From NCBI GenBank assembly GCA_047974565.1, contig JBKECN010000015.1:68142-132141 (forward strand): 64,000 nucleotides of DNA, read 5' to 3'. The notes below the pieces were generated by a model. That model had not been told where the DNA came from. It saw only the letters and a list, made by a program, of their open reading frames with translations, and ran no database searches. Below are positions 23,976 through 44,659 of the stretch, in pieces. The DNA is from Actinomycetales bacterium. Lineage in GTDB: Bacteria > Actinomycetota > Actinomycetes > Actinomycetales > CAWJMD01. How positions within the stretch are numbered: the stretch's first letter is position 1; each line of letters starts with the position of its first letter. Made by a program: the position numbers and the translations under genes.

Positions 23976-26584
23976 CACACCTGGCAATCCTGGAGTCCAA
24001 CACCTCCGGGTCCGGCTTCGACACGATTCGCGCGGCCAAGCGGCTCGGCTGCCGGGTCACCTTCTTCACCTCCGGGCTGGACCGGTACCACGCCGCCCCC
24101 GGCGGACGCGCCTGCCTGGACGAGTGCGTTGACGAGATCGTGCTCTGCCCCACCCACGACCGGGTTGCCCTGACCCAGGCAGTCCGGGACGCGCATCGCA
24201 CCGATCCGTTCGACGGCTTCTGCTCGGTCGCCGAGTACGAGGTGGTGGACGCGGCCGCGATCGCCGAAGAACTCGGGCTGGCCTCCCCCGGCTCGACCGC
24301 AGTGGCCACGGCCCGCAACAAGATCCGGATGCGCCGCGTCTGCTCGGCCGCCGGCGTACCCACACCCCGCTTCGCTGCCGTGGCAGGTGTCGACCAGGTG
24401 GCCGAGGCAGTGGCGCACACCGGTCTGCCGTGCGTGGTCAAGCCCGCCGACGAGACCGCCAGCGCGCAGGTACGCCGCTGTGACACCGTCGACCAGGTCC
24501 ACGAGCATGTCGCCCGGGTGCTGAGCCAACCCCGCAACATCCGGGGACAGCGCCGCCACCCGGAGGTCCTCATCGAGGAGTTCCTGCCCGGCTTCGAGGT
24601 GAGCGTCGAGGTGCTGGTCACCGCCGACGGCGCCCGGGTGCTGGGTGTCACCGACAAGTGGGTGAGCGGCCACGGCAGCTTCGTCGAGCTCGGCCACACC
24701 TTCCCCAGCCAACTGCCGCCGGACGAGACCGCAGCTTGCGCCGCAGTCGCTGTCGACGCCGTGCAGGCGATCGGCCTGCAACTGGGACTGCATCACGTCG
24801 AGGTCCGCCAAAGCCGTTCCGGCCCCTGCCTTGTCGAGGTCAACCCGCGTCCGGCGGGCGACCGGATCCACGACCTGGTGGATCTCGCCCTTGGTGGCTT
24901 CTGCCTGGAGTTCGTGGTGCGGCAGAGCCTGGGGGAACCGGTCGAGCTCGACACCCCCGTGGTGGCGCGGCGCGCAGCCGCCATCCGGTACCTGATCAGC
25001 GCACCGGGAACCGTGACCGGGGTGCACGGCCTGGAGACCGCCGCGACCCTGCCCGGTGTGCAGGCCGCCGTTGCCGGGGTTCGCCCGGGCGACCAGGTGC
25101 AGCCGCTGAGCCGCAACGAGGACCGCACCGGCTACGTGCTGGCCACCGGAGCCGACGCCTTCACCGCCTCCCGGTGGGCCGAAGCCGCCGCGCTGCAGAT
25201 CGACATCCGCACCCAGGATGCCTCCGCAGAGCCGTCCGAACCACGTCAGGCGCATCACCAGTGCGGAGGTCCCGGCACCGCCTCAGTGCCCGCCACCAGG
25301 CAGTCGACCGGCCAGGCACCGGACTCGGCAGGCGTGCTCGTCATGGTGATGCCCTACCGGGCGTTCGTCGACAAGGCCACCGCCGCCGGTTATCGGGTGC
25401 ACGCCCTCTGGGACACCGCCGTCGCCGAACGGCTCTATCACCAGGACGCCGGGCGGTACCTCGACGAACTCGGCCAGGTCGCCGAGAGCCTGCAGTTCAC
25501 CGACTTCGACGACGAGGACGCCTACCAGGGCGCCCTGGACGAACTGGTGCTTCGCCACCGCCCAGACCGCCTCCTGCACTTCGGGTCCGAGGAGTCGATG
25601 CCGGTCGCCTACCGGGTGGCCCACCGTCATGGCCTGGAGTCCAACCCTCCCGAGGCGATCGCCTGCCTGAACGACAAGGCGGTCATGCGGCGGGCGCTCG
25701 CCGAGGCCGGGGTATCCCCGGTGCGAGCGGTGCTCGTCGACTCACCAGCGGACCTGGCCCACGTGCTCGCCGACACGACGTTGCCGGTCGTGGTCAAGCC
25801 GACCGGACTCTCCGGAAGCCGAGCAGTGCAGCGCATCGACGACCGGAGTCAGCTCCCCGGCTACCTCGACTCGCTGGCGCACTATGACTACACCGGGCCG
25901 TTGCTGGTGGAGGAGTACCTCGACGGGCCCGAGTTCAGCGTGGAGACGGTGAGCATCAACGGCCTGGCACATGTGGTCGGTGTGACCCGAAAGTCGGTCG
26001 GGCCGGCACCACTGTTCGTCGAGACCGGCCACGTGCACCCGGCCCCCGAGTCCGAGGCGGCGTTGGTTGCGGCCGAAGCGGTTCGGCTGCTCGAGGTGGC
26101 CGGCTACCAGTGGGGTCCCGCCCATACCGAGGTCCGGCTCACCCGCCACGGTCCGCGGATCATCGAGTCGCAGGCCCGCCTCGGCGGCGATCGGATCCCC
26201 CGGCTGGTGCACCTGGCCACCGGCATCGACCTCGAACGTGAGGTGACCTGCACCCTGTCCGGCAGCTGCGTCGGCCTTGTCCCGCAGCACCGGCGGGTCG
26301 CCGCCATCGACTATCTGGAACTACCGGTCGGAGTGGTTCTGGCGATCGACGGCCTCGCCGCGGTCCGCGAACTGGCCTACGTGGACGAACTGAAGGTGCC
26401 CTGGTCCGTCGGCGACCGGATCACCCCAGTGCTGGACACCTGGTCCCGGCACGGTCACGTGATCGTCAGCGCCGACGACCACGACACGCTGCAGGTGCGC
26501 CGCGATCAGGTCCGCGAGGCGATCCTCACCTGCTTCACCATCGACACCCAGGGCCAGGACGACGACTGGCGGGCCGCCTCATGA
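23972..26584 (+). CDS. Fused double ATP-grasp ligase (two complete ATP-grasp modules in one 870-aa protein)
   Basis: Module 1: ARNKIRMRRVCSAAGVPTPRF...LPCVVKPADETAS...EEFLPGFEVSVE...HHVEVR. Module 2: LNDKAVMRRALAEAGVSPV...LPVVVKPTGLSGS...EEYLDGPEFSVE...AHTEVRL. ATGA overlaps at both ends. Confidence 0.85.
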   Translation: MTHLAILESNTSGSGFDTIRAAKRLGCRVTFFTSGLDRYHAAPGGRACLDECVDEIVLCPTHDRVALTQAVRDAHRTDPFDGFCSVAEYEVVDAAAIAEELGLASPGSTAVATARNKIRMRRVCSAAGVPTPRFAAVAGVDQVAEAVAHTGLPCVVKPADETASAQVRRCDTVDQVHEHVARVLSQPRNIRGQRRHPEVLIEEFLPGFEVSVEVLVTADGARVLGVTDKWVSGHGSFVELGHTFPSQLPPDETAACAAVAVDAVQAIGLQLGLHHVEVRQSRSGPCLVEVNPRPAGDRIHDLVDLALGGFCLEFVVRQSLGEPVELDTPVVARRAAAIRYLISAPGTVTGVHGLETAATLPGVQAAVAGVRPGDQVQPLSRNEDRTGYVLATGADAFTASRWAEAAALQIDIRTQDASAEPSEPRQAHHQCGGPGTASVPATRQSTGQAPDSAGVLVMVMPYRAFVDKATAAGYRVHALWDTAVAERLYHQDAGRYLDELGQVAESLQFTDFDDEDAYQGALDELVLRHRPDRLLHFGSEESMPVAYRVAHRHGLESNPPEAIACLNDKAVMRRALAEAGVSPVRAVLVDSPADLAHVLADTTLPVVVKPTGLSGSRAVQRIDDRSQLPGYLDSLAHYDYTGPLLVEEYLDGPEFSVETVSINGLAHVVGVTRKSVGPAPLFVETGHVHPAPESEAALVAAEAVRLLEVAGYQWGPAHTEVRLTRHGPRIIESQARLGGDRIPRLVHLATGIDLEREVTCTLSGSCVGLVPQHRRVAAIDYLELPVGVVLAIDGLAAVRELAYVDELKVPWSVGDRITPVLDTWSRHGHVIVSADDHDTLQVRRDQVREAILTCFTIDTQGQDDDWRAAS

Positions 26585-28482
26585 GTACCACCCGCGCCGT
26601 GGAATCCGTTGTGACACCGGCCGAACCCTTACCCGGCCCGATCCGGCTCCGAATCGGGGTCAACTTCGTCCAGCGTCTGGTCGACTCGATGACCTTGGCG
26701 TTCATGGCCATTCACCTGGCCGGCCTATTCGGCGTCGCGGTGGCCGGGTTGATCACCACCGCTGTCATGGTGGTGGCCACCGTCGGCACCGTGGTCGGCG
26801 GCTCCGCAGCCCAGCGCTGGGGTAGGCGTCGCCCGTTGCTGGCCGCCGAAGCCCTGGTGGCCGTGTCCTTCCTGGCCATGTCCTTCGCCGACGCCAGCCG
26901 GCACGGGGCCCTGGTGCTGGCAGTCGGCTATGCCGCGAGCAAGTTCGGCGCCGGCTTGGCGGTCCCGGCCAACGAGGCGATGCTGGTCGACCTCAGCACC
27001 CCGCAGAATCGCACCCGGATGTACACGATCAACTACTGGGCGATCAACCTGGCGATCGCGATCGGGGCACTGGCCGGTGCCTACCTGTTCGGCCTGCACT
27101 TCCAGTGGGTGCTGGCCGGCGCGGCCCTGCTGATGGGCCTGGTCTTGTGCACCACCCTGATCTTCATCCCCGAGACCGCGCCGACCGGTACGTCAGCCGA
27201 CACCCCCGGGCGACCCCGCGCGTCCTACCGACGGGCGCTGGCGAACCGGCCCTTCATCTACCTCGCGCTCGCCGCGACCCTGCTGATGACGGTGGAGTTC
27301 CAACTCGTCAACTGGATCGCGGTGCACCTGGCCCAAGACTTCGGCCCGCAGAACCTCATCGCACTCGGCTCCCGGACGGTGACCGTGGACGGGGTGGAAC
27401 TGCTCGGCGTGCTGCGCGCGGAGAACACCGTCCTCGTCGTGGTGGGAGCCTTCGTGGTGGGCAGGCTGCTCGCCCGAGTGCCGCTGGGGGTGCGGATGAT
27501 CACCGGTGCAACCCTCTTCGTGGCCGGCTATGTGGGCTTGGCCCTGGGCGGCTCGATCTGGTTCCTGATCGGGGCCGTCGTCGTCTTCACGATCGGCGAA
27601 CTGACCGAGGCGCCCAGCCGCCAGGTACTGCTGGCCGAGCTCGTGCCCGAAGACGACCGGCCGCGTCACCTCGCGGTGTACGCGCTGCACATCCGGATCG
27701 CCCTGGTCCTTGCCGGGCTGAGCCTGACCGCCGGCGCCTTCGTGGGGCCACGGGTGATGGCCGCGGGGTTCGCCCTGCTCGGGGCGGCCGTGCTGCTGCT
27801 CTACCGGGCCGTGCTGTCCGGTAGAAACCGCCGCAGCCCGGGCCGGCCCCGGCACCGGGCACACCGTCGGACGCGGGTGTCCGGTTCTGTCGACGCGACG
27901 CGACGCGGTAGCACCGAACCCGCCGATCGCGTCGATCCCGCACCCAACGGCTCACGCCCGGAGGACGCCCACCGAGCCGGCGACCGCGTGAGCACCGCGG
28001 GAGGACAGCAGCAAGACGGTGTGGAACGCGCCGGTGCCGGCGAGCACGCCGCGTCGCCGGAGCACCGTTCAGGGAGTCCGGCTCCCAGCGCGCCGGCAGC
28101 GAATACTGCTCCCGCGCAGACCGTCTCGATCGAGATTCATCGACCGGGCGACAATGAGCTGGCCGAACTGCGCAGCATCCTGGACGGCATCGACGACTCG
28201 CTGATGCTGACGCTGGACGCGCGAATCCGCTGTTGTGTGCAGATCGCCTCGGTGAAATCCAGGTACGGCATCGCCATGATGCAGCCACACCGAATCGGTT
28301 TCGTCCACCGCCGAGCGGACGACTTCGCCGGCAACCATGACGTGGATGCTCGCTTCCTGCATCGCCTCTACGACCTCCTCATCGCCGAGACCTGCCGGGT
28401 GGAGGACGAGTTGATGTCCACCACCAACCCGGTCACACCCCCTCGCGTCCCCTCGTCCAGAGAACCGGTGAGCACCCCATGA
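26581..28482 (+). CDS. MFS transporter fused, via a ~110-aa Arg/Pro/Ala-rich linker, to a C-terminal AroQ-type chorismate-mutase-like domain
   Basis: Residues 1-412 hold about 12 hydrophobic helices. Residues ~525-612 read ELAELRSILDGIDDSLMLTLDARIRCCVQIASVKSRYGIAMMQPHRIGFVHRR...FLHRLYDLLIAETCRVE. There is no stop between the two parts. Confidence 0.8.
   Translation: MSTTRAVESVVTPAEPLPGPIRLRIGVNFVQRLVDSMTLAFMAIHLAGLFGVAVAGLITTAVMVVATVGTVVGGSAAQRWGRRRPLLAAEALVAVSFLAMSFADASRHGALVLAVGYAASKFGAGLAVPANEAMLVDLSTPQNRTRMYTINYWAINLAIAIGALAGAYLFGLHFQWVLAGAALLMGLVLCTTLIFIPETAPTGTSADTPGRPRASYRRALANRPFIYLALAATLLMTVEFQLVNWIAVHLAQDFGPQNLIALGSRTVTVDGVELLGVLRAENTVLVVVGAFVVGRLLARVPLGVRMITGATLFVAGYVGLALGGSIWFLIGAVVVFTIGELTEAPSRQVLLAELVPEDDRPRHLAVYALHIRIALVLAGLSLTAGAFVGPRVMAAGFALLGAAVLLLYRAVLSGRNRRSPGRPRHRAHRRTRVSGSVDATRRGSTEPADRVDPAPNGSRPEDAHRAGDRVSTAGGQQQDGVERAGAGEHAASPEHRSGSPAPSAPAANTAPAQTVSIEIHRPGDNELAELRSILDGIDDSLMLTLDARIRCCVQIASVKSRYGIAMMQPHRIGFVHRRADDFAGNHDVDARFLHRLYDLLIAETCRVEDELMSTTNPVTPPRVPSSREPVSTP
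28153..28416 (+). other. AroQ chorismate-mutase-like domain (PapB-like candidate: 4-amino-4-deoxychorismate mutase)
   Basis: Helical CM_2 pattern L..LR..LD.ID..L..LL..R......I...K. The only in-frame alternative start nearby is GTG 28021. Confidence 0.65.
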
Positions 28483-30605
28483 ACATCCTGCTGATCGACA
28501 ACTTCGACTCCTTCACCTACAACCTCAGCCAGTACCTCGCCGAGGTGAGCGGACAGGTCCCGACCGTGGTCACCAACACCACCCCGTTCGGCGACCTGGA
28601 CTGGCAACGGTTCGACGCCGTCGTCATCTCACCTGGACCTGGAAGGCCGGACCGGGCAGTCGATTTCGGGATCAGTGCCAGGGTTCTTCGGGAGACCGAG
28701 CTACCGGTGCTGGGAGTGTGCCTGGGGCACCAGGGCCTGGGCCACGTCTTCGGGGCGACGGTTCGGCATGCTCCCGAGCCGGTGCACGGGCGCAGTTGGG
28801 ACGTGCGTCACGACGGTCGAGAACTCTTCGCCGGCCTGCCCGACCCGCTGCAGGTCATCCGATACCACTCCCTGGCACTGACCGACCTGCCACCGGAGTT
28901 GGAGGTCACCGCCTGGACCCCGGAGGGAGTGGTGATGGGCATCCGGCACACCGAGCGGCCGATGTGGGGTGTGCAGTTCCATCCCGAGTCGATCGGCAGC
29001 GACGGTGGCCACCGGTTGCTGGGGAACTTCCTCGACCTCGCCACTGCTGCGGCTCACACAGATCGACCGCCCCGCGGGCGGGCGATCGACCTGGACCGTC
29101 GCTACCAGGCCCGGGTGCGAATCCTGCACCGCGACCTGGATTCGGAGACCGTCTTCAGCACGCTCTTCGCCGATCACGATCGCTCGTTCTGGCTGGACAG
29201 CAGCGCCGTCGAGCCGGGGGTGTCCCGGTTCTCGTTCATGGGCGCCCCGGACGGTCCGCTCGCCGAGACCGTCGAGTACGACGTGACCAACCGGCAGGTG
29301 AGCCTGACCCGAGCAGGCGCACCCGAGAGCGGCCCCGATTCGAGCGAGATCTTCGAGGTCGAGTCGGTCTTCGACTATCTCGACCGGCAACTGCGCTCCC
29401 GGGTGATCAGCGGCACCGACCGGGAACTGCCCTTCGAGTTCTGCGGCGGCTACGTGGGCTATCTCGGCTATGAGCTCAAGGCCGAGACCACCGGGCGCGC
29501 CGCCCACCGCAGCCCCACCCCTGACGCCTGCCTGATGTTCGTCGACAGATTCCTCGCCTTCGACCACGAAGAGCGGCTCGTCTACCTGGTGGCCTTGGAA
29601 CAAGCCGGTCACGCCGACGAGGTGGAACGCTGGTTCGAGAACACCATGCACCGGTTGCAACGGCTCCCCGGCCGCGCCGAGCCGTCTGGGCAACCAGGTC
29701 ACGACGTGCGCCTGCACGGAATGGACACCCCGGATCTGGCACTGGCCCCGCGCCACGACGAGGACGCCTACCTGGACCGGGTGGACGAATGCCTCGAGGA
29801 GATCGCCGATGGGGAGTCCTACGAGATCTGCCTCACCAACAGCGTTCAGGCACCCCCGGTGGAGTCGCCCTACCGCACCTACCAACAGCTCCGGACGATC
29901 GCTCCGGTGCCCTATGCGGCGTACCTGGCGACCCCCCACGTCCAGGTGCTCAGTGCCTCGCCCGAACGATTTCTGCGGGTCGACTCCACCGGTATCGTGG
30001 AGTCCAAGCCGATCAAGGGCACCCGGCCCCGGGGTGAGACGCCCCGAGAGGATCTCGACCTTCGGGTCGACCTGGCAGCCAACCCCAAGGACCGGGCCGA
30101 GAACCTGATGATCGTCGACCTGCTACGCAACGACCTCAACGTCGTCTGCGAACCGGGCTCGGTACACGTGCCCACACTCTTCGACGTGGAGACCTACGCC
30201 ACTGTGCACCAACTGGTCTCGACGATTCGCGGACGGCTGCGGCCGGAGGAGTCCGCTGTGTCCTGCGTGCGGGCCGCCTTCCCCGGCGGATCGATGACCG
30301 GAGCACCGAAGGTGCGTTCCATGGAGATCATCGATCGCCTGGAAGGCGGGCCTCGCGGGGTGTACTCCGGCGCCCTGGGCTGGTTCTCGCTCACCGGGGC
30401 CGCCGACCTCAACATCGTCATCCGGACCCTGGTGGTCACGCCTACCGAAACCACCTTCGGGGTCGGCGGAGCCATCATCGCCCTGTCCGACCCGCGCGAC
30501 GAACTGCAGGAGACAGTGGTGAAATCGCGTTCGGTGGTCAGCGCCATGGCCGCCACCGACGATGCCGGCATCTACACCGGCACCGGCCTGAGGTTGGCGT
30601 CATGA
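28479..30605 (+). CDS. pabAB: Fused PabA-PabB aminodeoxychorismate synthase (PapA/CmlB-like)
   Basis: N-terminal GATase1 (ILLIDNFDSFTYNL, GVCLGHQ, FHPES). C-terminal chorismate-binding domain (PIKGTRPRG, FPGGSMTGAPK, GVYSGALGW). Confidence 0.9.
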   Translation: MNILLIDNFDSFTYNLSQYLAEVSGQVPTVVTNTTPFGDLDWQRFDAVVISPGPGRPDRAVDFGISARVLRETELPVLGVCLGHQGLGHVFGATVRHAPEPVHGRSWDVRHDGRELFAGLPDPLQVIRYHSLALTDLPPELEVTAWTPEGVVMGIRHTERPMWGVQFHPESIGSDGGHRLLGNFLDLATAAAHTDRPPRGRAIDLDRRYQARVRILHRDLDSETVFSTLFADHDRSFWLDSSAVEPGVSRFSFMGAPDGPLAETVEYDVTNRQVSLTRAGAPESGPDSSEIFEVESVFDYLDRQLRSRVISGTDRELPFEFCGGYVGYLGYELKAETTGRAAHRSPTPDACLMFVDRFLAFDHEERLVYLVALEQAGHADEVERWFENTMHRLQRLPGRAEPSGQPGHDVRLHGMDTPDLALAPRHDEDAYLDRVDECLEEIADGESYEICLTNSVQAPPVESPYRTYQQLRTIAPVPYAAYLATPHVQVLSASPERFLRVDSTGIVESKPIKGTRPRGETPREDLDLRVDLAANPKDRAENLMIVDLLRNDLNVVCEPGSVHVPTLFDVETYATVHQLVSTIRGRLRPEESAVSCVRAAFPGGSMTGAPKVRSMEIIDRLEGGPRGVYSGALGWFSLTGAADLNIVIRTLVVTPTETTFGVGGAIIALSDPRDELQETVVKSRSVVSAMAATDDAGIYTGTGLRLAS

Positions 30606-31531
30606 GTGACTGGGCGGCAAGCGCCCGGCACGCCGTGGTGGTCGGCGCCGGAGCCGTCGGCGCTCTGTTCGCCCACGCGCTGGCCGGTGATGGTGTGCAG
30701 GTGACGATGCTCGATCGCACTGCCCATCCGTCGGGTCCCTTCCCGGTGATCGAATGCGATGCGACCTCGTTGACGGTTCGCGCGATCGCCCACCTGGATC
30801 GGGCAGACATCGTGGTGATGTCACTGCCGGAGAAGGTTTCGATCGCAGCCGTGAGCATCATCGCCTCCGCGGTCCGTCCCGATGCGCTCATCGTGGATAC
30901 CTCGTCCGTCAAGACGGGATTCGCCGACGAGGCCCGTCGGCTCCCGCCGGGGAGCGCCGAGATTGTCGGGGTGAACCCGATGTTCGCCCCGTCCCTGGGC
31001 TTCCAGGGTCGCCCGGTCGCTGTCGTGAGCATCCGGCCAGGCCCGCGGGGTACCGGTTTCACCGACCGGCTGCGCAGCTGGGGGAGTCAGGTCGTCGAGC
31101 TCACCGCCCAGGAACACGACGCTCTGACCGCCCAGACCCAGGCCCTGACGCATCTGAGCGTGCTCGCCTATGCGCTCACCCTGGCCCGGGCCGGCACGTC
31201 CGTCGGCGACCTGGTGGAAAGCGCCCCGCCGCCCTGCCGGAGCCTGCTCGCGCTGGCGGCACGCATCCTGGGCGGCAGCCCGGAGGTGTACTGGGACATC
31301 CAGATCCAGAATCCGGGTGCGGACGAACTCCGCCAAGGCCTCGCCGATTCGCTCGCCGAACTCTCGAAAATCATCGCCAACGATGACTTCTCGGCATTCG
31401 CTGACCTGCGAGCCGAGCTCATCGGCTACTTGGAACCGGAACTGGACACCCTCTCCGACGACTGTGCCCAGATGTTCACCGCCCAGATGTCCTCTGCCCA
31501 GCCGGTGCCCGGAGTCGCGGATCCTCACTGA
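30602..31531 (+). CDS. Prephenate/arogenate-dehydrogenase-family enzyme (PapC-like candidate)
   Basis: Rossmann VVVGAGAVGALFA, then VDTSSVK...GVNPMFAP...QEHDALTAQTQALTH typical of the TyrA family. ATGA overlap with pabAB. Confidence 0.8.
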   Translation: MSDWAASARHAVVVGAGAVGALFAHALAGDGVQVTMLDRTAHPSGPFPVIECDATSLTVRAIAHLDRADIVVMSLPEKVSIAAVSIIASAVRPDALIVDTSSVKTGFADEARRLPPGSAEIVGVNPMFAPSLGFQGRPVAVVSIRPGPRGTGFTDRLRSWGSQVVELTAQEHDALTAQTQALTHLSVLAYALTLARAGTSVGDLVESAPPPCRSLLALAARILGGSPEVYWDIQIQNPGADELRQGLADSLAELSKIIANDDFSAFADLRAELIGYLEPELDTLSDDCAQMFTAQMSSAQPVPGVADPH

Positions 31532-31657: not shown

Positions 31658-33340
31658 ATGCAGACCTTCACCACCACTGCCAGCAGTAGCGTCCTGGACG
31701 TCGAGTCCCGGAACCTGCTTGCCCTGGACGACAGTGTCGGCGGCGGAAGCATCGTCGCCTCCGCCCTCGCCTACAGCACCGACCCGACCACGCATTTCCT
31801 GCACAGTGCAACCCCCGTCGACCTGCCGGACGGGCGACGCTGCAGCGATCTGAGCCTGCATGATCTGGACCAGGCCACTCAGAGCTGGTCGGCCTGGTAC
31901 CTCGACCGGGGCGTGCGACCCCGAGACCGGGTGGCGGTCTTCATCGCCGACTCGTTCGCCTACTCCATCCACTTCTACGCGCTGGCCCAGATCGGGGCGA
32001 TCGCGGTGCTGATCAACAGCAACGCCTCCGCGCAGGTGGCTGGCTCGCTGCTCGAGCAGACCGAACCGGTGGGCCTGTACGCCGACCCCGAGCACCTGGC
32101 CCGGCTCGCCGAGGTGCCTGGTTCGCTGTGGGTGGTCACGTCCGAGCAGGTTCGCGCGCCCGCGCCGGCCACCCTGGCGGACGAGCACCGGTACAAGCAC
32201 GTGGGCGAGGACCCCGTCGTCATCCTGCATTCCTCCGGTACCACCGGACGACCCAAGCCGACGATCCACACCCATGCCTCGATCGTGGCCGGGCCCAAGT
32301 TCCGGCTGGTGGATCACCGCGAGGATCCCCACGCCACAACGATGACCGCACTACCGCAGTCACATCTGGGGTGCATTGCCTTCACCACCTACAGCGTCCT
32401 GGCCGGGGCGCCCCTGGTGGCCCTTCGGGACTGCCCCGGCCCCGTGCTGGCCGAATCGATCGACCGGTACCGTCCGACCGCGGTGATGTCCTTCGCCCAC
32501 GCGTACAGCGAACTCGCCGCCACCACCATCGAGCCTGGCACCCTCGACTCGGTGGGCACCTGGATCTCCATCGGCGACGCGGTGCACGAGGCGCACATCC
32601 GCCGGGTCCTGGACATGCGCAGCCCGTCGCTGCCGGCGGCGACCTTCCTGGACCGGCTGGGTACCACCGAGCTCGGCTGGGGCGTGCTGTTGCAGACGCA
32701 CACCACCGGTGCCGGGGTGGCCGCCCGCAGCGCCGGCCGTCCGGTCGGGGTGGCCGAGGTGCAGGTGCTGCGCGCCGACGGCACGCCGGCCGCACCCCAT
32801 GAGCCGGGCTTCCTCGGTGCGCGCGGCCCGGCGATCACGCCCGGCTACTGGGCCAACTCAGCGGTCACCTACTCCTCGCGGCTGGCCGGCTACTGGCTGA
32901 CCGGCGACGTGGCGGTGTGCGACGAGGGCGGCAACTACTACCTGATCGACCGCGTGGTGGATGCCATCGACACCCGCGACGCAGTGGGCTACTCCGTGGC
33001 GATGGAGGAGGCCTTGCTCGGCGGACTACCCGAGATCGAGGAGGTTGCCGTGGTGGCCGGCCGATACGACTCGCGGACCGTGGCAGTGGCCATGATCAAG
33101 CCGAGCCCCGGCGAGCACGACCCCGACCTGCTGGTGCGTCGGGTGAACGAGGTGCTCGTGCGCAACGCTCACCCGCCGATCGCCTTCGTCGAACTCATCG
33201 ACGCGCACGACGATCTGCCCACCGGGGTTACCGGCAAGGTGCTGAAAAGGCAACTGCGTGAGCGGTATGCGACGCTGCCGGTGCTGCCCGACGCCCGGCT
33301 GATCGCGGCCGATCCGCTCCTGGTCCCGATGGCCGGGTGA
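31658..33340 (+). CDS. Adenylate-forming enzyme (acyl/aryl-CoA ligase-like, ANL superfamily)
   Basis: 560 aa. ILHSSGTTGRPKP, GTTELG, WLTGDVAVCDEGGNYYLIDRVVD, TGKVLKRQLRE. Preceded by a 126-bp lower-GC spacer. Confidence 0.85.
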   Translation: MQTFTTTASSSVLDVESRNLLALDDSVGGGSIVASALAYSTDPTTHFLHSATPVDLPDGRRCSDLSLHDLDQATQSWSAWYLDRGVRPRDRVAVFIADSFAYSIHFYALAQIGAIAVLINSNASAQVAGSLLEQTEPVGLYADPEHLARLAEVPGSLWVVTSEQVRAPAPATLADEHRYKHVGEDPVVILHSSGTTGRPKPTIHTHASIVAGPKFRLVDHREDPHATTMTALPQSHLGCIAFTTYSVLAGAPLVALRDCPGPVLAESIDRYRPTAVMSFAHAYSELAATTIEPGTLDSVGTWISIGDAVHEAHIRRVLDMRSPSLPAATFLDRLGTTELGWGVLLQTHTTGAGVAARSAGRPVGVAEVQVLRADGTPAAPHEPGFLGARGPAITPGYWANSAVTYSSRLAGYWLTGDVAVCDEGGNYYLIDRVVDAIDTRDAVGYSVAMEEALLGGLPEIEEVAVVAGRYDSRTVAVAMIKPSPGEHDPDLLVRRVNEVLVRNAHPPIAFVELIDAHDDLPTGVTGKVLKRQLRERYATLPVLPDARLIAADPLLVPMAG

Positions 33341-33465
33341 GCTGGGCCGCCGGTCGAGCCGAGACGCGGGAAACCCGGCGCTGCTGCCCACGAAACGCGC
33401 CCGGTACGGGATGCACACTCACGAGTGTCCATTTCCCCGGTCTTGTCCGGAGATGCCTGGGCTGA
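33337..33465 (+). CDS. Candidate 42-aa Cys-containing small ORF (speculative RiPP-type precursor)
   Basis: Not in the track (<60 aa). GTG 33337 forms a GTGA overlap with the ligase stop. Translation is VSWAAGRAETRETRRCCPRNAPGTGCTLTSVHFPGLVRRCLG. GC3 is only about 29/42 with several rare codons, so coding status is doubtful. Confidence 0.15.
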   Translation: MSWAAGRAETRETRRCCPRNAPGTGCTLTSVHFPGLVRRCLG

Positions 33466-33500
33466 CAGACTCCCCGGGTCAGCGTCGGGGAGTCTGTCAG
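33462..33500 (+). promoter_or_regulatory. Perfect 15-bp-stem hairpin directly upstream of the YcaO gene
   Basis: CTGACAGACTCCCCG-ggtcagcgt-CGGGGAGTCTGTCAG. The 3' arm ends 10 nt before ATG 33511 and overlaps the first bases of the AGGAG SD (33499-33503). Confidence 0.6.
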
Positions 33501-33510
33501 GAGCCATCGC

Positions 33511-36012
33511 ATGCCGGTCAGGGACGCCGATCCACCCGTGGGGCTTCGCCCCGGGGTGACCTTCTCCACCCTGGCGGACGGGCGACGCGCGTTGCACGCA
33601 GAGGGCCTGATGCTCAACCTGCCCGACCAGGCGGCGAGCCTCGCCCTGCCACTGCTGGCCGGTCATCTCAGCCCCACGCAGATCGCCCAGCGGTTGGACG
33701 GTCTGGTCGGCGGTGCCGAGGCGGCTGCCCTCATCGCCGACCTCTGGCAACGAGGACTCCTCGTCCAGGGCGTGCCGCAGCCACCGGGGCGAGTCTTCGT
33801 GGACGACTCCGCCCTGCCGTCACCGCCAGCCCCCGCACGGGCCCGGTACAAGGAGCAGGTTGGCAACAGTCAGGAGGCTGTAAAACGTTCCGGCAGAACC
33901 GTCCTCGACGGCGTCCCGCTCGAGGGCAGCGCCGGTACCGGCGAGACCGAGCAAGCCGGCGAGAGTGGGGGAGAGCCCGCGGCGTGGGTGGCCCGGCTAA
34001 TCGCCGACTGCGGGCTACACCCCAGCGGGCCCGCCGAGGCCGACGCGGCGATCGTGCTGTGTGCGGACTACCTGCAGACCGCGCTGATCGAGGCCGCCGA
34101 GCGACTCCGCAGCCAGGCAACCGCCTGGCTCCCGGTGCGGGTGAGCGCCACCGCGGTCTGGCTCGGGCCGTGGGTCGAGGAGAACCTGTGTTGGGACTGC
34201 GTCCGGGCCCGGCTGCGCGCGCACGATCCACGCCCCGACAGCGTCGTCGACGCCTCCGCCGAGAACGGACACCACGTCGGCACCCATGACCAGCGGACCT
34301 CGCTCGACCACGGCGGCGCATGGCAGCTCACCGACCAAGCCGGGGATGAGCGGACCGTCGATCTTCGTCACGTCGATGAACAAGGGGGCCACGACCTCGC
34401 GTCGCCCGACCTGACGCTGGTCGGGATGGGTGCCGCCGCGCGCCTGACTCGCGACCGCCTGACTCGCGATCGACTGGCCCAGCACACCACGACGGCATCC
34501 GGGCGAGCCGCGCCACCAGCCGGGGACCTCGATCCGGGGCAGCGCCCGGAGCCGGGACGGGGTCGGCTGCTCTGCATCGACGCCGACACGATGAGCCAGA
34601 GCGAGCATGTCGTGCTGGCCAGGCCCGAGTGCCCACGATGCGGCACGGGCGAAGCGATGGCCGCCAGGATGGACACTCGTCCCGCCCTGGCCCCGCAGGA
34701 GACCGCAGAACGTGGCGCCACCGGCCACCGGGCCCGCAACGCCGAGGACACCTGGCGGCGGTACCGCCACCTCGTCTCGCCGGTGAGCGGGCCGGTGGCC
34801 CGGGTGGACCCCGACCGGCGCCTACCGCCGGGCCTGCACGCCTACCTGGCCGGCAGCAACCTCGCCGGCGGACTGGTGCCGGGCCGGCGCAGCGTCCTGC
34901 GCTGGGATTGCGGAGGCAAGGGGGCGACCGCTGCGGCAGCCCGAACCAGTGCTCTGTGCGAGGCGCTGGAGCGGACCAGCAGCAGCTGGCACGGCGACGA
35001 GCGCCGCATTCTCGCCCGGTACGCCGATCTGGAGGAGGCTATCCCGGCCCGGGACCTGCAGCTCTTCGGCGACGAACAGTTCGCCGGGCGCACCGGGTGG
35101 AACAGCCGTCACTCGGCCTTTCAGCGTGTCCCCGAACCTGTCTCGGACGACGACGAACTCGAGTGGACCCCCGCGTGGCCGCTGGACGGCGGACCCAGGA
35201 CCCTCATCCCGACCGGCCTGTGCCTGCTCGGCGGCCCGGACGCCCACCGGCTCGCGGGAGACTCCAACGGATGCGCCGCCGGTAGTACCCTCACCGACGC
35301 CGTGCTGCAGGGGCTACTCGAGGTCATCGAACGCGACGCCGTGGGCATCTGGTGGTACAACCGGTTGCCGCAGCCCGACATTGACCTGGACGGCCTGAGG
35401 GAGCCCTATCTGGACGACGTCCGTCAGGTCTACCACGATCTCGGGCGCGACCTGTGGGCGCTGGAGGTGACCAGTGACCTCGGAATCCCCGTCGTCGCAG
35501 CGGTTTCCCGGCTGCGGGACGCAGCGCGGGAGAGCATCATCTTCGGCTTCGGCGCCCATCTCGACCCGCGGGTCGCCGTCCTACGCGCGGTCCTGGAGAT
35601 GAACCAGTTCCTGGCCACCGCGCTAACCGTCGACCCCGAGCAGTGGTGGGATCAGGATCCGGACTTCGCCCGCTGGATGACTACCGCGACCCTGGACGCC
35701 CATCCCTACCTGGCCCCACACCCGCAGGTGCCCCGGGTGCCCGACCAGATCCCCGAGCCGAGGCAGCTGGGCTTGCTGCCCGCGGTGGACGCCGTCCGGG
35801 ACCGGCTCGAGATCGCCGGATTACGCGCCTATCTCGTCGATCTGACCCGGGCAGACCTTGGCTTGCCGGTGGTCAAGGTGCTCGTTCCCGGAGCGCGACA
35901 CTGCTGGCTGCGCACTGCGCCCGGCCGGCTGTTCGAGGTGCCGGTGCGTCTGGGTCGGCTGAAGCACCAACACGGCGTGGCCGACCTCAACCCCGATCCG
36001 ATCTTCCTGTGA
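33511..36012 (+). CDS. Fused E1-like (C-protein, with N-terminal RRE-like winged helix) / YcaO (D-protein) azoline-forming cyclodehydratase
   Basis: 833 aa. E1-like half has the CWDC (227-230) and CPRC (374-377) zinc pair and WLPVRVSATAVWLGPW. YcaO half has RYRHLVSPVSGPV, SNGCAAGSTLTDAVLQGLLEVIERDAVGIWWYN and a Pro-containing C-terminus NPDPIFL. Confidence 0.9.
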   Translation: MPVRDADPPVGLRPGVTFSTLADGRRALHAEGLMLNLPDQAASLALPLLAGHLSPTQIAQRLDGLVGGAEAAALIADLWQRGLLVQGVPQPPGRVFVDDSALPSPPAPARARYKEQVGNSQEAVKRSGRTVLDGVPLEGSAGTGETEQAGESGGEPAAWVARLIADCGLHPSGPAEADAAIVLCADYLQTALIEAAERLRSQATAWLPVRVSATAVWLGPWVEENLCWDCVRARLRAHDPRPDSVVDASAENGHHVGTHDQRTSLDHGGAWQLTDQAGDERTVDLRHVDEQGGHDLASPDLTLVGMGAAARLTRDRLTRDRLAQHTTTASGRAAPPAGDLDPGQRPEPGRGRLLCIDADTMSQSEHVVLARPECPRCGTGEAMAARMDTRPALAPQETAERGATGHRARNAEDTWRRYRHLVSPVSGPVARVDPDRRLPPGLHAYLAGSNLAGGLVPGRRSVLRWDCGGKGATAAAARTSALCEALERTSSSWHGDERRILARYADLEEAIPARDLQLFGDEQFAGRTGWNSRHSAFQRVPEPVSDDDELEWTPAWPLDGGPRTLIPTGLCLLGGPDAHRLAGDSNGCAAGSTLTDAVLQGLLEVIERDAVGIWWYNRLPQPDIDLDGLREPYLDDVRQVYHDLGRDLWALEVTSDLGIPVVAAVSRLRDAARESIIFGFGAHLDPRVAVLRAVLEMNQFLATALTVDPEQWWDQDPDFARWMTTATLDAHPYLAPHPQVPRVPDQIPEPRQLGLLPAVDAVRDRLEIAGLRAYLVDLTRADLGLPVVKVLVPGARHCWLRTAPGRLFEVPVRLGRLKHQHGVADLNPDPIFL

Positions 36013-38015
36013 CCGCGACCTCTGGTAGCTCGGGCATCTCGGGGACCGCGGGTATCTCGGAGACGAGTCCTTCGGGCGCGGCCCCGGACGCCCGGCGACG
36101 GGAGTGGTTGCGGCGTCGGACGTTGCAGGGCTGGGCCCTTCAGGTGGCAGCCGCCGCCTACCTGCTCGTCGACCTGCTGCGCATCGTCGACCGGCACCTC
36201 GGCTGGGTCCCGACTCTGGTCGCCGCCGCCCTGCTGAGCCTGATGTGGTGGCTCTTCGCGGTCCGCCAGACCCGCCATGCGTTCCGGCCGATGACCCCGG
36301 TGGCCTGGGCGACCCTGCTGGCACAGGCTCTCGTCACGCTGGCCCCGACGGCCGTCTTCGGCCTCGACTGGCTGGGCGTCTGGGCACTGCTCGGCGGTGC
36401 GCTGCTGACCCTTACCCCGTTCGCGGTCGGGCTGACCGGCGCGCTCGCGGTGGCCGGCGGAGCGGGTGCGCTGATCTGGCAGGAAGTGGGTAGCCCGGCG
36501 GCCGCCGTCCTGGGTGGGGTGGGGGTACTCGCGGCGTCCGCGGCCTTCTTCGGCCTCGTGCTGCTCGCCTCGGCCAGCGACGAATTGGCCCGTGCGCAGG
36601 GCGAACTCGTCCAGGCGGCAGTGCTTCGCGAGCGCGCGCGCTTCCACGAGCGGATCGCCAGCACGCTCAAGGCCAATCTGCGCCAGATCCGCGAACTGGC
36701 CCACCGCCCGCTTGGGAGTCAGCTCCCGGCTGCGGCCGGGACCCAGGGGCAAGACGACGCCGGAGAAGGGCTCGCCCAGGCCAGCCGGGCCATCTCGGCC
36801 ATCGCCCGGTCGTCCCTGCTGGACAGCCGGAAGCTGGCCCATGCGCTGCCATCACAAGATCTCGACCCGGCTCTCTCGCCGACCCTGACCGGTGCGCGTT
36901 TCGCCGCGGTGCCCGGGTGGGCACTGCGCGGGCATCTGGCCGGCGCCATCCTGTCGGTGGTGCTGGTGCTGCGGGGCCTGGACGTGCTGCTGGCGGCCGC
37001 GGCACCGCTGCGAACATCGCCGATGACGCCCGGGTTCCTCCTCGGTGCAGCGCTGCTGGCGGCCTGCATCGGCCTGCAACTGGTGGTGCTTGCCCAAGCC
37101 GCTCGGGAGGTGAGCCAGCGGATGGCGGCCTCGCTCTGGGGCGCTCAGCTGCTGGTGACCGTGGGGCTGACGGTGTGTCTACCGCCCAACGGCGCGGCCA
37201 TGCTGGGCCTGCCCGCCGCCTCGGCGGTGTTGCTCTTCGGGATCGTCCCCGGGGGGTGGATGGCGTTGGCTCTCCTGCTGGTGGCGGGGGCGCTGCTCGC
37301 CGATCCGACCTCCCTGACGGGGCTCGGCTACGGCTTCCTCACCAGCTTGAACACCTTCGTCTTCGCCTACGCCCTCACCGAACTGAGCGTCCAGCTATCC
37401 CGCGTGCTGGCGGCGCAGGCCGAGATGGTCACCCTCGCGGTGATCGGCGAGAAGGGCCGGCAGGGCCGGGACCTGCACGACATCCTCGGGCCGACCATGT
37501 CTGCGCTGGCGTTGAAGTCGTCCCTGGCCGCCAAGCTGGTCGACCGCGATCCCGACCGCGCCCGAGCTGAGCTCGGGGAGATCGACGAGGTGGCCCGGCG
37601 TGCCATCGCCGAACTCGACCAGGTCCGCGACGCAGCCTTCGCCACCTCGGTGGATCGTGAAGTGGAAGCCTGCCGGTCGCTGCTCGCCGTCGCCGGGATC
37701 TCGGTGTCGCTGACCAGGAGCGGACCGGCCCCGCCTCAGGAGCACGTGGTCCCGCTCGCCGGATGCCTGCGCGAAGGGGCGAACAACGTCCTGCGGCACT
37801 CCGACGCCACCCGATGCACCATTCGGCTCACCTGCACCCCGGCCGTCTCGACTCTGCGGATAGCCAATGACGGGCTGCGCAATGGGCAGGCGGACTCACC
37901 GGGACGGGGACTGTCGAACCTGGCGGAACGGGCCGGTGACCTGGGTGGGCAGGCGCGGGCCTGGACAGCCGACGGCTGGCACTTCCTGGAGTTGACCCTG
38001 CCCGTGCACAGGTGA
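36009..38015 (+). CDS. Polytopic HisKA_3-type sensor histidine kinase with duplicated TM-DHp module
   Basis: 3' part of track ORF 35643..38015. GTG 36009 forms a GTGA overlap with the YcaO stop. First H-box-like is RERARFHERIASTL, second is GRDLHDILGPTMSAL. A single HATPase_c (NNVLRHS...GRGLSNLAERA). Confidence 0.85.
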   Translation: MTATSGSSGISGTAGISETSPSGAAPDARRREWLRRRTLQGWALQVAAAAYLLVDLLRIVDRHLGWVPTLVAAALLSLMWWLFAVRQTRHAFRPMTPVAWATLLAQALVTLAPTAVFGLDWLGVWALLGGALLTLTPFAVGLTGALAVAGGAGALIWQEVGSPAAAVLGGVGVLAASAAFFGLVLLASASDELARAQGELVQAAVLRERARFHERIASTLKANLRQIRELAHRPLGSQLPAAAGTQGQDDAGEGLAQASRAISAIARSSLLDSRKLAHALPSQDLDPALSPTLTGARFAAVPGWALRGHLAGAILSVVLVLRGLDVLLAAAAPLRTSPMTPGFLLGAALLAACIGLQLVVLAQAAREVSQRMAASLWGAQLLVTVGLTVCLPPNGAAMLGLPAASAVLLFGIVPGGWMALALLLVAGALLADPTSLTGLGYGFLTSLNTFVFAYALTELSVQLSRVLAAQAEMVTLAVIGEKGRQGRDLHDILGPTMSALALKSSLAAKLVDRDPDRARAELGEIDEVARRAIAELDQVRDAAFATSVDREVEACRSLLAVAGISVSLTRSGPAPPQEHVVPLAGCLREGANNVLRHSDATRCTIRLTCTPAVSTLRIANDGLRNGQADSPGRGLSNLAERAGDLGGQARAWTADGWHFLELTLPVHR

Positions 38016-38695
38016 CCCGCGGGCTCGCGGGCTCGTGGCAGGCAGAGTCATCCCGAGCGGACAATTCCGTCGGACGCTACGATTCCAACGTGATTCGGGT
38101 GCTGCTGGCGGAGGACGTGCACATGGTCCGCGGGGCCCTTGTCGCGTTGCTGGACCTCGAGGACGACATCGAGGTTGTCGCCACCTCCTCCGACGGCACC
38201 GATGTGCTCGAGTTGGTGCAGGCGCACACCCCGGACGTGGCCGTCCTCGACATCGACCTCGCCGGGGCTGATGGCATCGATCTGGCCCGCGCCATCCAAG
38301 AGGATCATCCGGGCGTGCGAGTGCTGTTGCTCACCAGCATGTCCACCCCCGCCACCGTCCAGCGGGCACTCTCGGCCCAGGTCGACGGCTTCCTCCTCAA
38401 GGACGAACAGCCCGAACAACTCGCCCAGGCCGTGCGGGACATCGCTCGCGGCCGCAAGGTCGTCGATGGGGACCTGGTGTTGAACGCGATGAGTGTGGGC
38501 CCCTGCCCGCTCAGCCCCCGCGAGTTGGAGGTGCTGCGGGCGGCTGCGGATGGTCAGGAGCCAGGCGAGATCGCGAAGAAACTCTTCCTGTCGATCGGCA
38601 CCGTCCGCAACCATCTCACCGCGGCGATGGCCAAACTGTCGGCGCGAAACCGGGTGGACGCGGTGCGCAAGGCCACTGATTCAGGCTGGATCTGA
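38012..38695 (+). CDS. NarL/LuxR-family response regulator
   Basis: GTGA overlap with the kinase stop (alternative start GTG 38090, VIRVLLAEDV). Receiver domain plus HTH LSPRELEVLRAAADGQEPGEIAKKLFLSIGTVRNH. Confidence 0.9.
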   Translation: MTRGLAGSWQAESSRADNSVGRYDSNVIRVLLAEDVHMVRGALVALLDLEDDIEVVATSSDGTDVLELVQAHTPDVAVLDIDLAGADGIDLARAIQEDHPGVRVLLLTSMSTPATVQRALSAQVDGFLLKDEQPEQLAQAVRDIARGRKVVDGDLVLNAMSVGPCPLSPRELEVLRAAADGQEPGEIAKKLFLSIGTVRNHLTAAMAKLSARNRVDAVRKATDSGWI

Positions 38696-38760
38696 CGGGC
38701 TCAGGCTGGATCTAACTGGCTGAGGCTGGATCTGACGGACTGAGGCTGGAGCTGAGGGCT
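38681..38760. repeat. 4 tandem copies of a 20-bp unit (TCAGGCTGGATCTGACGGGC) starting inside the last codons of the response regulator
   Basis: Units at 38681, 38701, 38721 and 38741 with 1-4 substitutions each. Confidence 0.9.
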
Positions 38761-38859
38761 CCTACCCGTCCGCAGCCAACCGGGGTGGTCGGCGGCTGAG
38801 CCACGCCGAGCGGACGAACGGCTGGTCGACGGTGAGGCCGCGCCGCGCTGTTCAACGGT

Positions 38860-39018
38860 TCAGATCAGTCCGGGCTCGACGGCGACCCGGGTGAAGCACC
38901 AGGGAATGACGACCTCGTCCTGGTCGGCGTCGTCGAACCGAGACCAGATGACACTCGGCTTCTCCGCAGCCTTCTCGGCGAGAGCGGCCAGGGTGGCGAA
39001 GGGGTTCTTGATGTCCAT
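38860..39018 (-). CDS. 52-aa small protein of unknown function
   Basis: Not in the track (<60 aa). ATG 39018 is preceded by GGAGAAAAGAC. GC3 is about 46/52. Translation is MDIKNPFATLAALAEKAAEKPSVIWSRFDDADQDEVVIPWCFTRVAVEPGLI. Confidence 0.5.
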   Translation of the reverse strand: MDIKNPFATLAALAEKAAEKPSVIWSRFDDADQDEVVIPWCFTRVAVEPGLI

Positions 39019-39706
39019 GTCTTTTCTCCAGACGTGAGGTTCTCGGTGGTCTTTACGTCATGAAGTCTTGCCGGTTTCGGGGGCGTGGCGCCAGAGTTCA
39101 GACCCATGAAGAATTCCTGATTCCGGTGTGCCCTAGCCACGGGACGCGGTGGTCGACGTCGTGACCATCGGGAACCGGCTTGAGCCCCACCGGGTGCCAT
39201 CGCCGCTGGCGGCACCGTGGGATTCGGCTGTAAATCATTAACGCACAATGAGTTTCGACTATGTGAGGAGATGCATAGTCATCGATGTCCGGTCCCTGGG
39301 GCATCGCCCCTCGCACATCGCGGTGGCCACCGGCCCGCAGGACGCCCGGTGTCTGCGCGGACCGCTGTCCAGCTGCGTGAGCGGTTGGTCGGGGATTGTG
39401 GATTGGCTCAGGAGACAGCCGTGCCGAAACGTGGCGAGCAACAGGCCGGTGTCGCGTGGGTATTGCTTCCTGCGCATTGAGAACTCGGTGCAGGACGAGG
39501 ACCACGAATCTGGACGCCACAATCCAGACCCGCGGATCGGAATCCAATGGCGTGGGGGCGGGAGGCGACCGGGTATTGAGCGACGCTCTGGCCGATCCTG
39601 CATCCTGGGGCCGCCACGACCATGACCCGGCACGTCAACGCCGTCCAGCAGGGGTGGCCGATGGCCGCGAAGGATTCCGGCGTGCCGGTCGACTCCCTGC
39701 GAGCTT

Positions 39707-39752
39707 GAGGCTCAGAAGTGACGGGTGAGGCTCAGAAGTGACGGGTGAGGCG
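39707..39752. repeat. 2.3 tandem copies of a 20-bp unit (TGAGGCTCAGAAGTGACGGG) spanning the stop codon of the DUF1992 gene
   Basis: Identical units at 39707-39726 and 39727-39746, partial third copy to 39752. The gene's stop (39732-39734) sits in copy 2. Confidence 0.9.
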
Positions 39753-41560: not shown

Positions 41561-41720
41561 GGGCCGCTGGCCAGTGCTGGGCCGTTGGCAGCGCTGAGCC
41601 GCTCGGCATACCGGGCCGATGAGCGTCTGGGCCGATGAGCGTCTGGGCCGATGAGCACCCGGGCCGATGAGCACCTGGGCCGATGAGCAGCAGGGCCGTT
41701 GGCAGCAGGGCCGGTGGGCG
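41561..41720. repeat. About 10 tandem 15-18-nt units (GGGCCGATGAGCnnnn and variants) in the intergenic spacer
   Basis: Five exact-core copies at 41613, 41629, 41645, 41661 and 41677, with degenerate flanking copies. Confidence 0.9.
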
Positions 41721-41907: not shown

Positions 41908-42477
41908 GTGGTGCCTGACTCTGGCTCACCTGACTCAGGCCCACCCGATTCTGGCCCACCTGACTCTGGCCCACCCGACTCAGGCCCACCCGACTCAGGC
42001 CTACCGGAGTCTGGCCCACCCGACTCGACCCCATCCGGCCCTGCCCGGGTTGACCCGGCATCTGGGCCGTCCTGCTCGGTGGTGGTTGTGGTCGACGCGG
42101 CGAATGTCGTCGGGTCGGTGCCCGACGGGTGGTGGCGCGATCGCCTCGGCGCGGCGAACAGGCTCGTGCGTCGAGTGGGCAGCCTCGCCACGGCCGGGGT
42201 GAGCGATGAACGTCTGGGCACCGGCATCCGCCACCCTGAGTGGATCGTCGTCGTCGAGGGCAAGGCCGCGCGGGCCCAGCCCGTCGACGGGGTCCGGGTG
42301 GTCTCCGCCTCCGGCTCCGGGGACGACGCCATCGTCGAGGTAGCCACCGGTGAGCGTTCCCGGGACGCTCAGGTGTGGGTGGTCACCAGTGACCGCGGGT
42401 TGCGCGCTCGGCTGGCGGACGTCGACGTCGCCGCAGTCGGTACCCGGTGGCTGACCAGCAGGCTCCCGGTGGCTTGA
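41908..42477 (+). CDS. NYN/PIN-like (YacP-like) domain protein with N-terminal PDSGP pentapeptide repeats
   Basis: C-terminal part VVVVVDAANVVGSVPDGWWRDR...WIVVVEGKA...VVTSDRGLRARL. The N-terminal 40 aa derive from a 15-nt repeat, so the start is uncertain. Confidence 0.5.
   Translation: MVPDSGSPDSGPPDSGPPDSGPPDSGPPDSGLPESGPPDSTPSGPARVDPASGPSCSVVVVVDAANVVGSVPDGWWRDRLGAANRLVRRVGSLATAGVSDERLGTGIRHPEWIVVVEGKAARAQPVDGVRVVSASGSGDDAIVEVATGERSRDAQVWVVTSDRGLRARLADVDVAAVGTRWLTSRLPVA
41914..42033 (+). repeat. 8 tandem 15-nt units (CCCGACTCAGGCCCA) encoding (PDSGP)n
   Basis: Units every 15 nt from 41914, in frame with the 41908 ORF. Confidence 0.9.
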
Positions 42478-44623: not shown

Positions 44624-44659
44624 GGCGTGATCATGCCAGCACGCAGACCCTCAGGCACC

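Follow-up and report, generated by a model that had tools for sequence, protein, structure and literature searches.

The junction between the ligase and YcaO genes

We analysed a window of 64,000 nucleotides from an Actinomycetales bacterium (contig JBKECN010000015.1 of assembly GCA_047974565.1, forward-strand positions 68,142 to 132,141; coordinates below are those of the window), and in particular the junction between two genes of its + strand: a gene for an AMP-binding enzyme, here called the ligase (31658-33340; PF00501 and NF058622), and a gene for an 833-residue protein in which an E1-like domain is fused to a YcaO domain (33511-36012; PF02624, TIGR03604 and TIGR03882). Between them lies a non-coding spacer of 170 nt (33341-33510, + strand), which contains a hairpin with a perfect 15-bp stem and a 9-nt loop (33462-33500, + strand) and the Shine-Dalgarno sequence AGGAG of the YcaO gene (33499-33503, + strand). 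A 42-codon open frame, from GTG to TGA (33337-33465, + strand), runs from the ligase stop codon into the hairpin. The initial annotation had proposed this frame as the precursor gene of a RiPP (a peptide made by ribosomes and modified after translation), and the hairpin as a device that sets the stoichiometry of precursor and enzyme. We conclude instead that the hairpin is beyond chance, that the frame is almost certainly a chance open frame in a non-coding spacer and not a gene, and that the spacer joins two cassettes that are conserved independently of each other. For the hairpin itself, the reading that we favour, and to which we give about an even chance, is that of an RNA-level element that makes a 3' end at the seam between the cassettes, either as a leaky terminator lacking a U-tract or as a barrier to exonucleases.

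The borders of the spacer agree with the initial annotation. The TGA of the ligase gene (33338-33340) is overlapped by the GTG of the 42-codon frame (33337-33339) in the arrangement GTGA, and the AGGAG at 33499-33503, inside which the hairpin ends, is separated by 7 nt from the ATG of the YcaO gene at 33511. Homologues of the YcaO protein align with it from residue 2 (L035), which supports this ATG, the first after the upstream stop, as the start, and the sequence from that stop codon to 33511 holds no other start codon in the YcaO frame; both the start of the YcaO gene and the extent of the spacer are therefore secure. Because the spacer, including the hairpin, is identical in two further assemblies from separate sequencing runs (L049 and L050), an assembly artefact is unlikely. 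The GC content of the spacer is 0.69 and is flat by codon position in all six frames, no TANNNT motif is found within 33341-33510, and blastn detected no similarity between the spacer and the other sequences compared in the analysis.

The genes on the two sides of the spacer occur apart from each other elsewhere. The three best homologues of the ligase with contigs that we inspected (59-61% identity; L060, L061 and L062) all stand in the order CM_2-PapA-PapC-ligase, and a YcaO gene follows the ligase in none of the three. The relatives of the YcaO gene (encoding proteins at most 47% identical) are never accompanied by pap or ligase genes, and many of them have kept the kinase and regulator genes. 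These are also the closest non-identical relatives available, with identities of at most 47% for the YcaO protein, which is otherwise represented only by identical copies, and at most 61% for the ligase. Judged from these gene orders, the spacer is the seam of two independently conserved modules, and the hairpin would mark the join of a p-aminophenylalanine/diazotase cassette to a peptide-YcaO-two-component cassette.

A hairpin beyond chance expectation

The arms of the hairpin, CTGACAGACTCCCCG (33462-33476) and CGGGGAGTCTGTCAG (33486-33500), are 100% complementary and 9 nt apart, exactly as first described; an additional closing G-U pair extends the stem to 16 bp and leaves a loop of 7 nt. 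The structure starts 122 nt after the ligase stop codon and ends 10 nt before the YcaO ATG, has a folding energy of -31 to -32.4 kcal/mol, and includes the TGA of the 42-codon frame (33463-33465) in its 5' arm. It is the longest perfect inverted repeat with a short loop in the 64 kb, and among 500 dinucleotide-shuffled versions of the window just 2 contained a perfect stem of 15 bp or more. Only one T is found among the 8 nt on the 3' side of the stem, GAGCCATC, and a U-tract is thus absent. A terminator scan did not report the site, which has the stem-loop of a canonical intrinsic terminator and lacks its U-tract.

We considered whether the hairpin belongs to a known class of elements. A known RNA family or riboswitch was rejected, since Rfam 15 gave no match at gathering thresholds across the window and only chance-level hits (E of at least 0.3) within 33250-33600. 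A repeated or mobile element was likewise rejected: the window holds no further copy of the arm sequence, metagenome contigs scanned for the exact pattern gave only three unrelated hairpins of 44-54% GC without similarity in their flanks, and the blastn search with the spacer was empty. Within the 200 nt that precede the YcaO gene in 48 related loci, the best perfect stems have 4-8 bp and none is comparable; the hairpin thus belongs to this particular junction and not to the YcaO family.

The 42-codon frame

The coordinates of the frame (33337-33465, with 42 codons before the TGA at 33463-33465) and its translation, VSWAAGRAETRETRRCCPRNAPGTGCTLTSVHFPGLVRRCLG, were confirmed, as were the reservations with which it had been proposed. 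Its GC content at third codon positions (GC3) is indeed 0.69, the codons listed as rare are rare in the genome (AGA 1.3, ACA 2.7, AGT 3.8, CTT 3.9 and CGA 9.8 per thousand), and chance open reading frames do arise easily in high-GC DNA, with 144 of at least 30 codons within the 14 kb around the site. At 69.4% GC, stop codons are expected at about 2% per codon (calculated from base composition), and the probability that a 42-codon frame stays open is about 0.4.

The composition of the frame is that of non-coding DNA. GC contents at the first, second and third codon positions are 0.64, 0.74 and 0.69, as against roughly 0.72, 0.50 and 0.85 in the genes of the window. With codon log-odds trained on 25 of these genes, the frame scores -0.21 bits per codon; real in-frame windows of 42 codons have a mean of +0.39 (standard deviation 0.22), and only 2.1% of them score that low. 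The frame was not called as a gene by the gene caller of the Logan assembly (L049). A collection of 5.8 billion proteins contained neither the peptide itself nor anything that shares three 5-residue words with it, and no NCBIfam family, including the NHLP and Nif11 leaders, matched it at E of 0.01 or below. Pairwise Smith-Waterman comparison with seven related precursors gave p = 0.34-0.97, no better than shuffled sequence, although the similarity among genuine precursors of the YcaO family is itself often below significance. The remnant of an ancestral precursor gene was sought by tblastn of related precursors against the spacer, without similarity in any frame.

The predicted peptide has four Cys, four Thr and two Ser residues and is basic, with seven Arg against two Glu and a net charge of about +5 (counted by eye); GC-rich non-coding DNA typically yields such an Arg-rich make-up when translated. 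The frame lies on the same strand as the enzyme gene and ends 45 nt 5' of the YcaO start. Its position and its Cys, Ser and Thr residues are what would be expected of a precursor, but this says little, because any open frame in the spacer would have the same position. For genome mining, it follows that an open frame with Cys codons that precedes a YcaO gene in high-GC DNA is no evidence of a precursor.

Possible roles of the hairpin

We infer that the hairpin terminates or attenuates transcription. In a transcript that crosses the junction, the stem would create a 3' end, through leaky termination that dispenses with a U-tract or by blocking 3' exonucleases; the ligase mRNA would be retained, and the YcaO, kinase and regulator genes, reached by read-through, would have lower expression. 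The initial annotation had allowed, as a fallback, that the hairpin alone could be a terminator or attenuator, or else could occlude the ribosome-binding site of YcaO. The first of these is the part favoured by the evidence and the second takes a secondary place; neither is proven.

Judging by comparable cases, hairpins without a U-tract mark the ends of operons in this group of organisms. Elsewhere in the window, T-runs are likewise missing from the hairpins that separate convergent genes (60226-60270 and 60319-60363). In Streptomyces triticagri (L062), no other gene stands between the ligase orthologue and a convergent gene, and a perfect hairpin of roughly 24 bp without a U-tract (9715-9775) comes directly after the orthologue, a suitable reference for U-less terminators of such clusters. 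Term-seq of Streptomyces clavuligerus identified 535 highly structured 3' ends (below -23 kcal/mol), and for 353 of these the 8 nt that follow hold fewer than 3 U; read-through at the U-lacking structured ends is intermediate, and non-terminal ones occur within biosynthetic operons (PMC8269248). The junction hairpin falls within both numerical limits of this class, for folding energy and for the number of U (PMC8269248). It is like these 'I-shaped' 3' ends in having a GC-containing stem of -31 kcal/mol, one U in 8 nt, an intergenic position within a same-strand cluster and an expected partial read-through, and unlike them in that its 3' end is a predicted one, that its stem is exceptional in length and perfection, and that the stem abuts the next ribosome-binding site.

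Most likely, then, this is an ordinary U-less intercistronic hairpin of high-GC actinobacterial clusters, and current views of RiPP biosynthesis and of transcription termination are left unchanged. Intercistronic stabiliser hairpins are known to give segmental stability to mRNA, for example in the puf operon of Rhodobacter and, as repetitive extragenic palindromic (REP) sequences, in malEFG of E. coli. The present hairpin is like them in being a stable stem between cistrons that could protect the upstream part from 3' exonucleases and allow unequal expression within one operon; it differs in not being a repeated (REP-like) element, since its arm sequence has a single occurrence in the window and the metagenome scan gave only unrelated low-GC hairpins.

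Several points weigh against a 3' end made by the hairpin. The U-tract is missing after the stem, and hairpins without one are reported to terminate poorly with mycobacterial RNA polymerase in vitro, their termination efficiency being disputed; the 3' end may come from processing or protection instead of termination. A consensus scan and inspection of the spacer found no recognisable promoter between the hairpin and the YcaO gene or before the stem, and leakiness must be assumed, since full termination would, in the absence of a promoter, silence the YcaO cassette. Moreover, the end of the stem 10 nt before the ATG and its 2-nt overlap with the ribosome-binding site suit translational control equally well, and the locus is known only in identical copies, which leaves no covariation signal.

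Translational control is the most serious competitor to a 3' end at the stem, although we consider it unlikely. The stem, perhaps together with pairing of its flanks (33441-33461 with 33504-33523), would mask part of the ribosome-binding site and the AUG of the YcaO gene, so that translation is lowered or made conditional on melting. The 3' arm does take up the first two bases of AGGAG as its last two pairs, and, in the minimum-free-energy structure as in the ensemble, the flanking helix engages the A and U of the AUG with a probability of about 0.98-0.99. The five bases of AGGAG, however, have probabilities of being unpaired of 0.24, 0.48, 0.99, 0.77 and 0.54, and the core GAG of the site is thus mostly open. 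The extended helix that buries the AUG was rejected as a structure in its own right, because it is seen in the fold but does no better than shuffled flanks (-20.7 kcal/mol as compared with -16.2 ± 3.5; p = 0.10). Nor do the 48 related loci have an equivalent structure. For refactoring or heterologous expression of either half of the cluster, the presence of a strong stem directly before the YcaO ribosome-binding site matters in any event.

Rather improbable, in our view, is a scenario in which the 42-codon frame serves as an upstream open reading frame that bridges the two genes. Ribosomes would re-initiate at GTGA, translate the 42 codons and, on reaching the stop codon within the 5' arm, melt the stem; the peptide would be irrelevant, and read-through, YcaO translation or both would be coupled to translation of the ligase gene. 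Junctions with 4-nt overlaps also join real operon genes here (28479/28482, 30602/30605, 36009/36012 and 38012/38015), the stop codon does lie inside the 5' arm, and codon statistics do not weigh against such a frame, since one that acts in cis needs no gene-like codon usage. The GTG, however, is preceded by no Shine-Dalgarno sequence, translation of the frame is conjecture, and none of the relatives examined shows a comparable arrangement; moreover, the stop codon in the arm was noticed post hoc, and we estimate the chance of such a coincidence at a few percent. If true, the arrangement would wire two independently evolved cassettes together after their fusion.

A role at the level of DNA is harder still to defend, and we hold it very improbable that the palindrome is an operator bound by a dimeric regulator, such as the LuxR-type regulator of the cassette, and overlapping a weak promoter (TTGTCC-N17-CAGACT, 33443-33471). 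Two-component operons commonly regulate themselves, and the only arrangement in the spacer that resembles a -35 and a -10 element does place the -10 in the left arm. This promoter is a poor match, however, and the consensus scan was empty; perfect 15-bp arms 9 bp apart probably exceed typical half-sites; and the arm motif is absent elsewhere in the window. A motif shared with loci of related regulators was also looked for, and it is absent upstream of YcaO in the loci whose regulators are 47-55% identical.

Least probable of all, and by now barely tenable, is the reading with which the analysis began, that the 42-residue Cys-rich peptide is a RiPP precursor and the hairpin an attenuator that keeps it in excess over the enzyme. 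The expectation of a precursor gene directly upstream of YcaO is sound for the family, as relatives with precursors in that place and on that strand demonstrate; the peptide has its four Cys, four Thr and two Ser; and RiPP clusters with an attenuator after the precursor gene have been described (PMC7113386). Against this stand the non-coding composition and codon score of the frame, its absence from the gene calls and the lack of a homologue, of an NHLP, Nif11 or other leader, and of similarity to related precursors. Genuine precursors in the relatives have 54-79 residues and a GC3 of 0.80-0.86 where measured, and those checked are acidic or near neutral (counted by eye), unlike a peptide with seven Arg and a net charge of about +5. 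Where coordinates were read, their genes overlap the YcaO start and have no hairpin after them; in L054-L058, the overlap of the precursor stop with the YcaO start leaves no room for one. A layout of precursor, hairpin and enzyme is thus not how this family is built, and with a non-coding frame and a layout that related clusters do not share, the claim of a precursor with a stem-loop for stoichiometry is not supported. Finally, a far better coding small gene, of 52 codons, adjoins the cassette.

The attenuators of RiPP operons (btmD-btmE of bottromycin, and lantibiotic and microcin operons; PMC7113386) are like the present hairpin in that a stem-loop directly before the gene of a modifying enzyme could lower its transcript; they are unlike it in that the upstream gene here encodes a ligase and no precursor, and that the precursor genes before YcaO in the relatives lack a comparable hairpin. 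With the precursors of fused E1-like/YcaO proteins (NHLP, Nif11 and, in Amycolatopsis, Streptomyces, Lentzea and Kineosporiaceae, unclassified peptides of 54-71 residues) the frame shares the upstream slot and the presence of Cys; it is basic, has no leader family or coding signature, and stops 45 nt short of the YcaO start. The slot that precursor genes of the relatives occupy before YcaO is here filled by non-coding spacer.

A fusion of the 42-codon frame to YcaO by read-through or selenocysteine insertion, brought to mind by a common reading frame interrupted only by the TGA at 33463-33465 and a further 15 sense codons, by the hairpin at that TGA and by a loop that begins GGUC, was rejected on the non-coding statistics of the frame. 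Bacterial selenocysteine insertion sequences have a distance of roughly 16-37 nt between UGA and loop, and the distance of about 12 nt found here also counts against selenocysteine.

The YcaO cassette and its relatives

Downstream of the junction, the YcaO protein combines a leader-peptide-binding (E1-like) domain with a YcaO cyclodehydratase domain, and its matches to TIGR03604 and TIGR03882 are both above the cut-offs. A HisKA_3 histidine kinase gene (36009-38015, + strand), the start of which overlaps the YcaO stop, and a LuxR/NarL-type response regulator gene (38012-38695, + strand) follow, and both junctions, YcaO-kinase and kinase-regulator, are overlaps of 4 nt. Kinase homologues come after YcaO in loci of Lentzea, Herbidospora, Kineosporiaceae and Streptomyces, and the regulator is 47-55% identical to regulators encoded downstream of related YcaO genes. 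We find a recurrent actinobacterial cassette composed of a small hypervariable peptide, a fused E1-like/YcaO protein, a HisKA_3 kinase and a LuxR-type regulator (L054-L058, L031, L001-L003, L007, L014 and Herbidospora); a limited literature search returned no description of it. Variations were seen: in L057 and L058, the cassette adjoins other biosynthetic genes (for a Streptomyces antibiotic regulatory protein and parts of a polyketide synthase), in Herbidospora a ThcOx/SagB-type oxidase gene is inserted between those of YcaO and the kinase, and the kinases of Lentzea and Herbidospora have two HisKA_3 stretches each.

The small genes of these loci are all on the strand of YcaO in Amycolatopsis, Streptomyces and a Joint Genome Institute (JGI) contig, Kineosporiaceae, Lentzea and Herbidospora. 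The precursor genes of Amycolatopsis (56-60 residues; L054 and L056) and those of Streptomyces and the JGI contig (54-71 residues; L055, L058 and L057) lie upstream, with their stop codons overlapping the YcaO start. Small genes upstream of YcaO encode 55 residues in Kineosporiaceae (L031) and 59-62 residues in the five loci of Lentzea. The precursor of Herbidospora has 79 residues and belongs to the NHLP clan (TIGR04351, E 2e-15); its gene is directly upstream in most loci and farther upstream, by about 0.8-1.3 kb, in L017 and in L026. In two loci of proteobacterial type (L036 and L043), a gene for a Nif11-type precursor (TIGR03798) stands directly downstream of YcaO.

Beyond the regulator gene, four tandem 20-bp copies of TCAGGCTGGATCTGACGGGC occupy 38681-38761, starting in the last codons of the regulator and filling part of the spacer before the convergent gene described below; the copies that were read hold a TGA or a TAA.

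A 52-codon gene as a candidate precursor gene

The convergent gene (38860-39018, - strand) encodes the 52-residue peptide MDIKNPFATLAALAEKAAEKPSVIWSRFDDADQDEVVIPWCFTRVAVEPGLI and is the sole strongly coding small open reading frame near the YcaO cassette. It was called in two data sources, its GC contents by codon position are 0.62, 0.43 and 0.87, a GGAG lies 7 nt before its ATG, and its codon score is +0.54, a value that only 0.25% of non-coding frames attain. The peptide is acidic, with a single Cys in an aromatic and hydrophobic C-terminal stretch, PWCFTRVA. By eye, SVIWSRFDD-10 aa-PWCFTRVA resembles LAIDRLDG-10 aa-RLCYTWVA of Amycolatopsis, a similarity that is not significant and serves only as a lead.

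Sequence comparison gives little beyond this. In pairwise Smith-Waterman alignments with related precursors, the best p was 0.18, a hidden Markov model of mixed-family precursors did not match the peptide, and, apart from the peptide itself, an exhaustive HMMER search returned nothing but spurious eukaryotic zinc-finger and BRCA2 repeat proteins. Positional orthologues among the related precursors, however, are often no more alike than the 52-residue peptide is to them. This gene, about 5 kb from the 42-codon frame and on the opposite strand, is the better candidate for the precursor gene, and plausibly a relocated one. We would put the peptide's being the substrate of the YcaO enzyme at slightly less than, or at best, an even chance.

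The upstream cassette and further repeats

The ligase gene is the last of a PapB-PapA-PapC-ligase cassette on the + strand (26581-31531 and 31658-33340). Its nearest neighbours encode a PapA-like aminodeoxychorismate synthase and a PapC-like dehydrogenase; further upstream genes encode ATP-grasp L-amino-acid ligases, an adenylation-thiolation-thioesterase protein resembling nonribosomal peptide synthetases (NRPS), an aminotransferase, and a fusion of a major facilitator superfamily transporter with chorismate mutase. By far the best family match of the ligase is the AvaA6-type ATP-dependent aromatic-amine diazotase (NF058622, E 1.4e-102, 344 bits), and since the score is below the equivalog cut-off of 975 bits, we treat this as a resemblance and not as an assignment. 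Candidate nitrite-supplying genes stand beside two of the homologous cassettes, for a molybdopterin oxidoreductase and a NirB-like reductase in L060 and for an enzyme of the fumarate-lyase family (Lyase_1/ADSL_C) in L062. Taken together, these features suggest a product built on diazotised p-aminophenylalanine and assembled by the ATP-grasp amino-acid ligases.

Where the NRPS-like gene and the aminotransferase operon diverge, their promoter region contains a 22-bp unit repeated 3.3 times (22551-22620), with a spacing that recalls the direct-repeat binding sites of pathway regulators. Further tandem arrays of the window have units of 20 bp (2.3 copies, 39706-39751), 16 bp (6.4 copies each, 41613-41713 and 44658-44760), 15 bp (7.3 copies, 41914-42026) and 71 bp (5.1 copies, 54080-54451).

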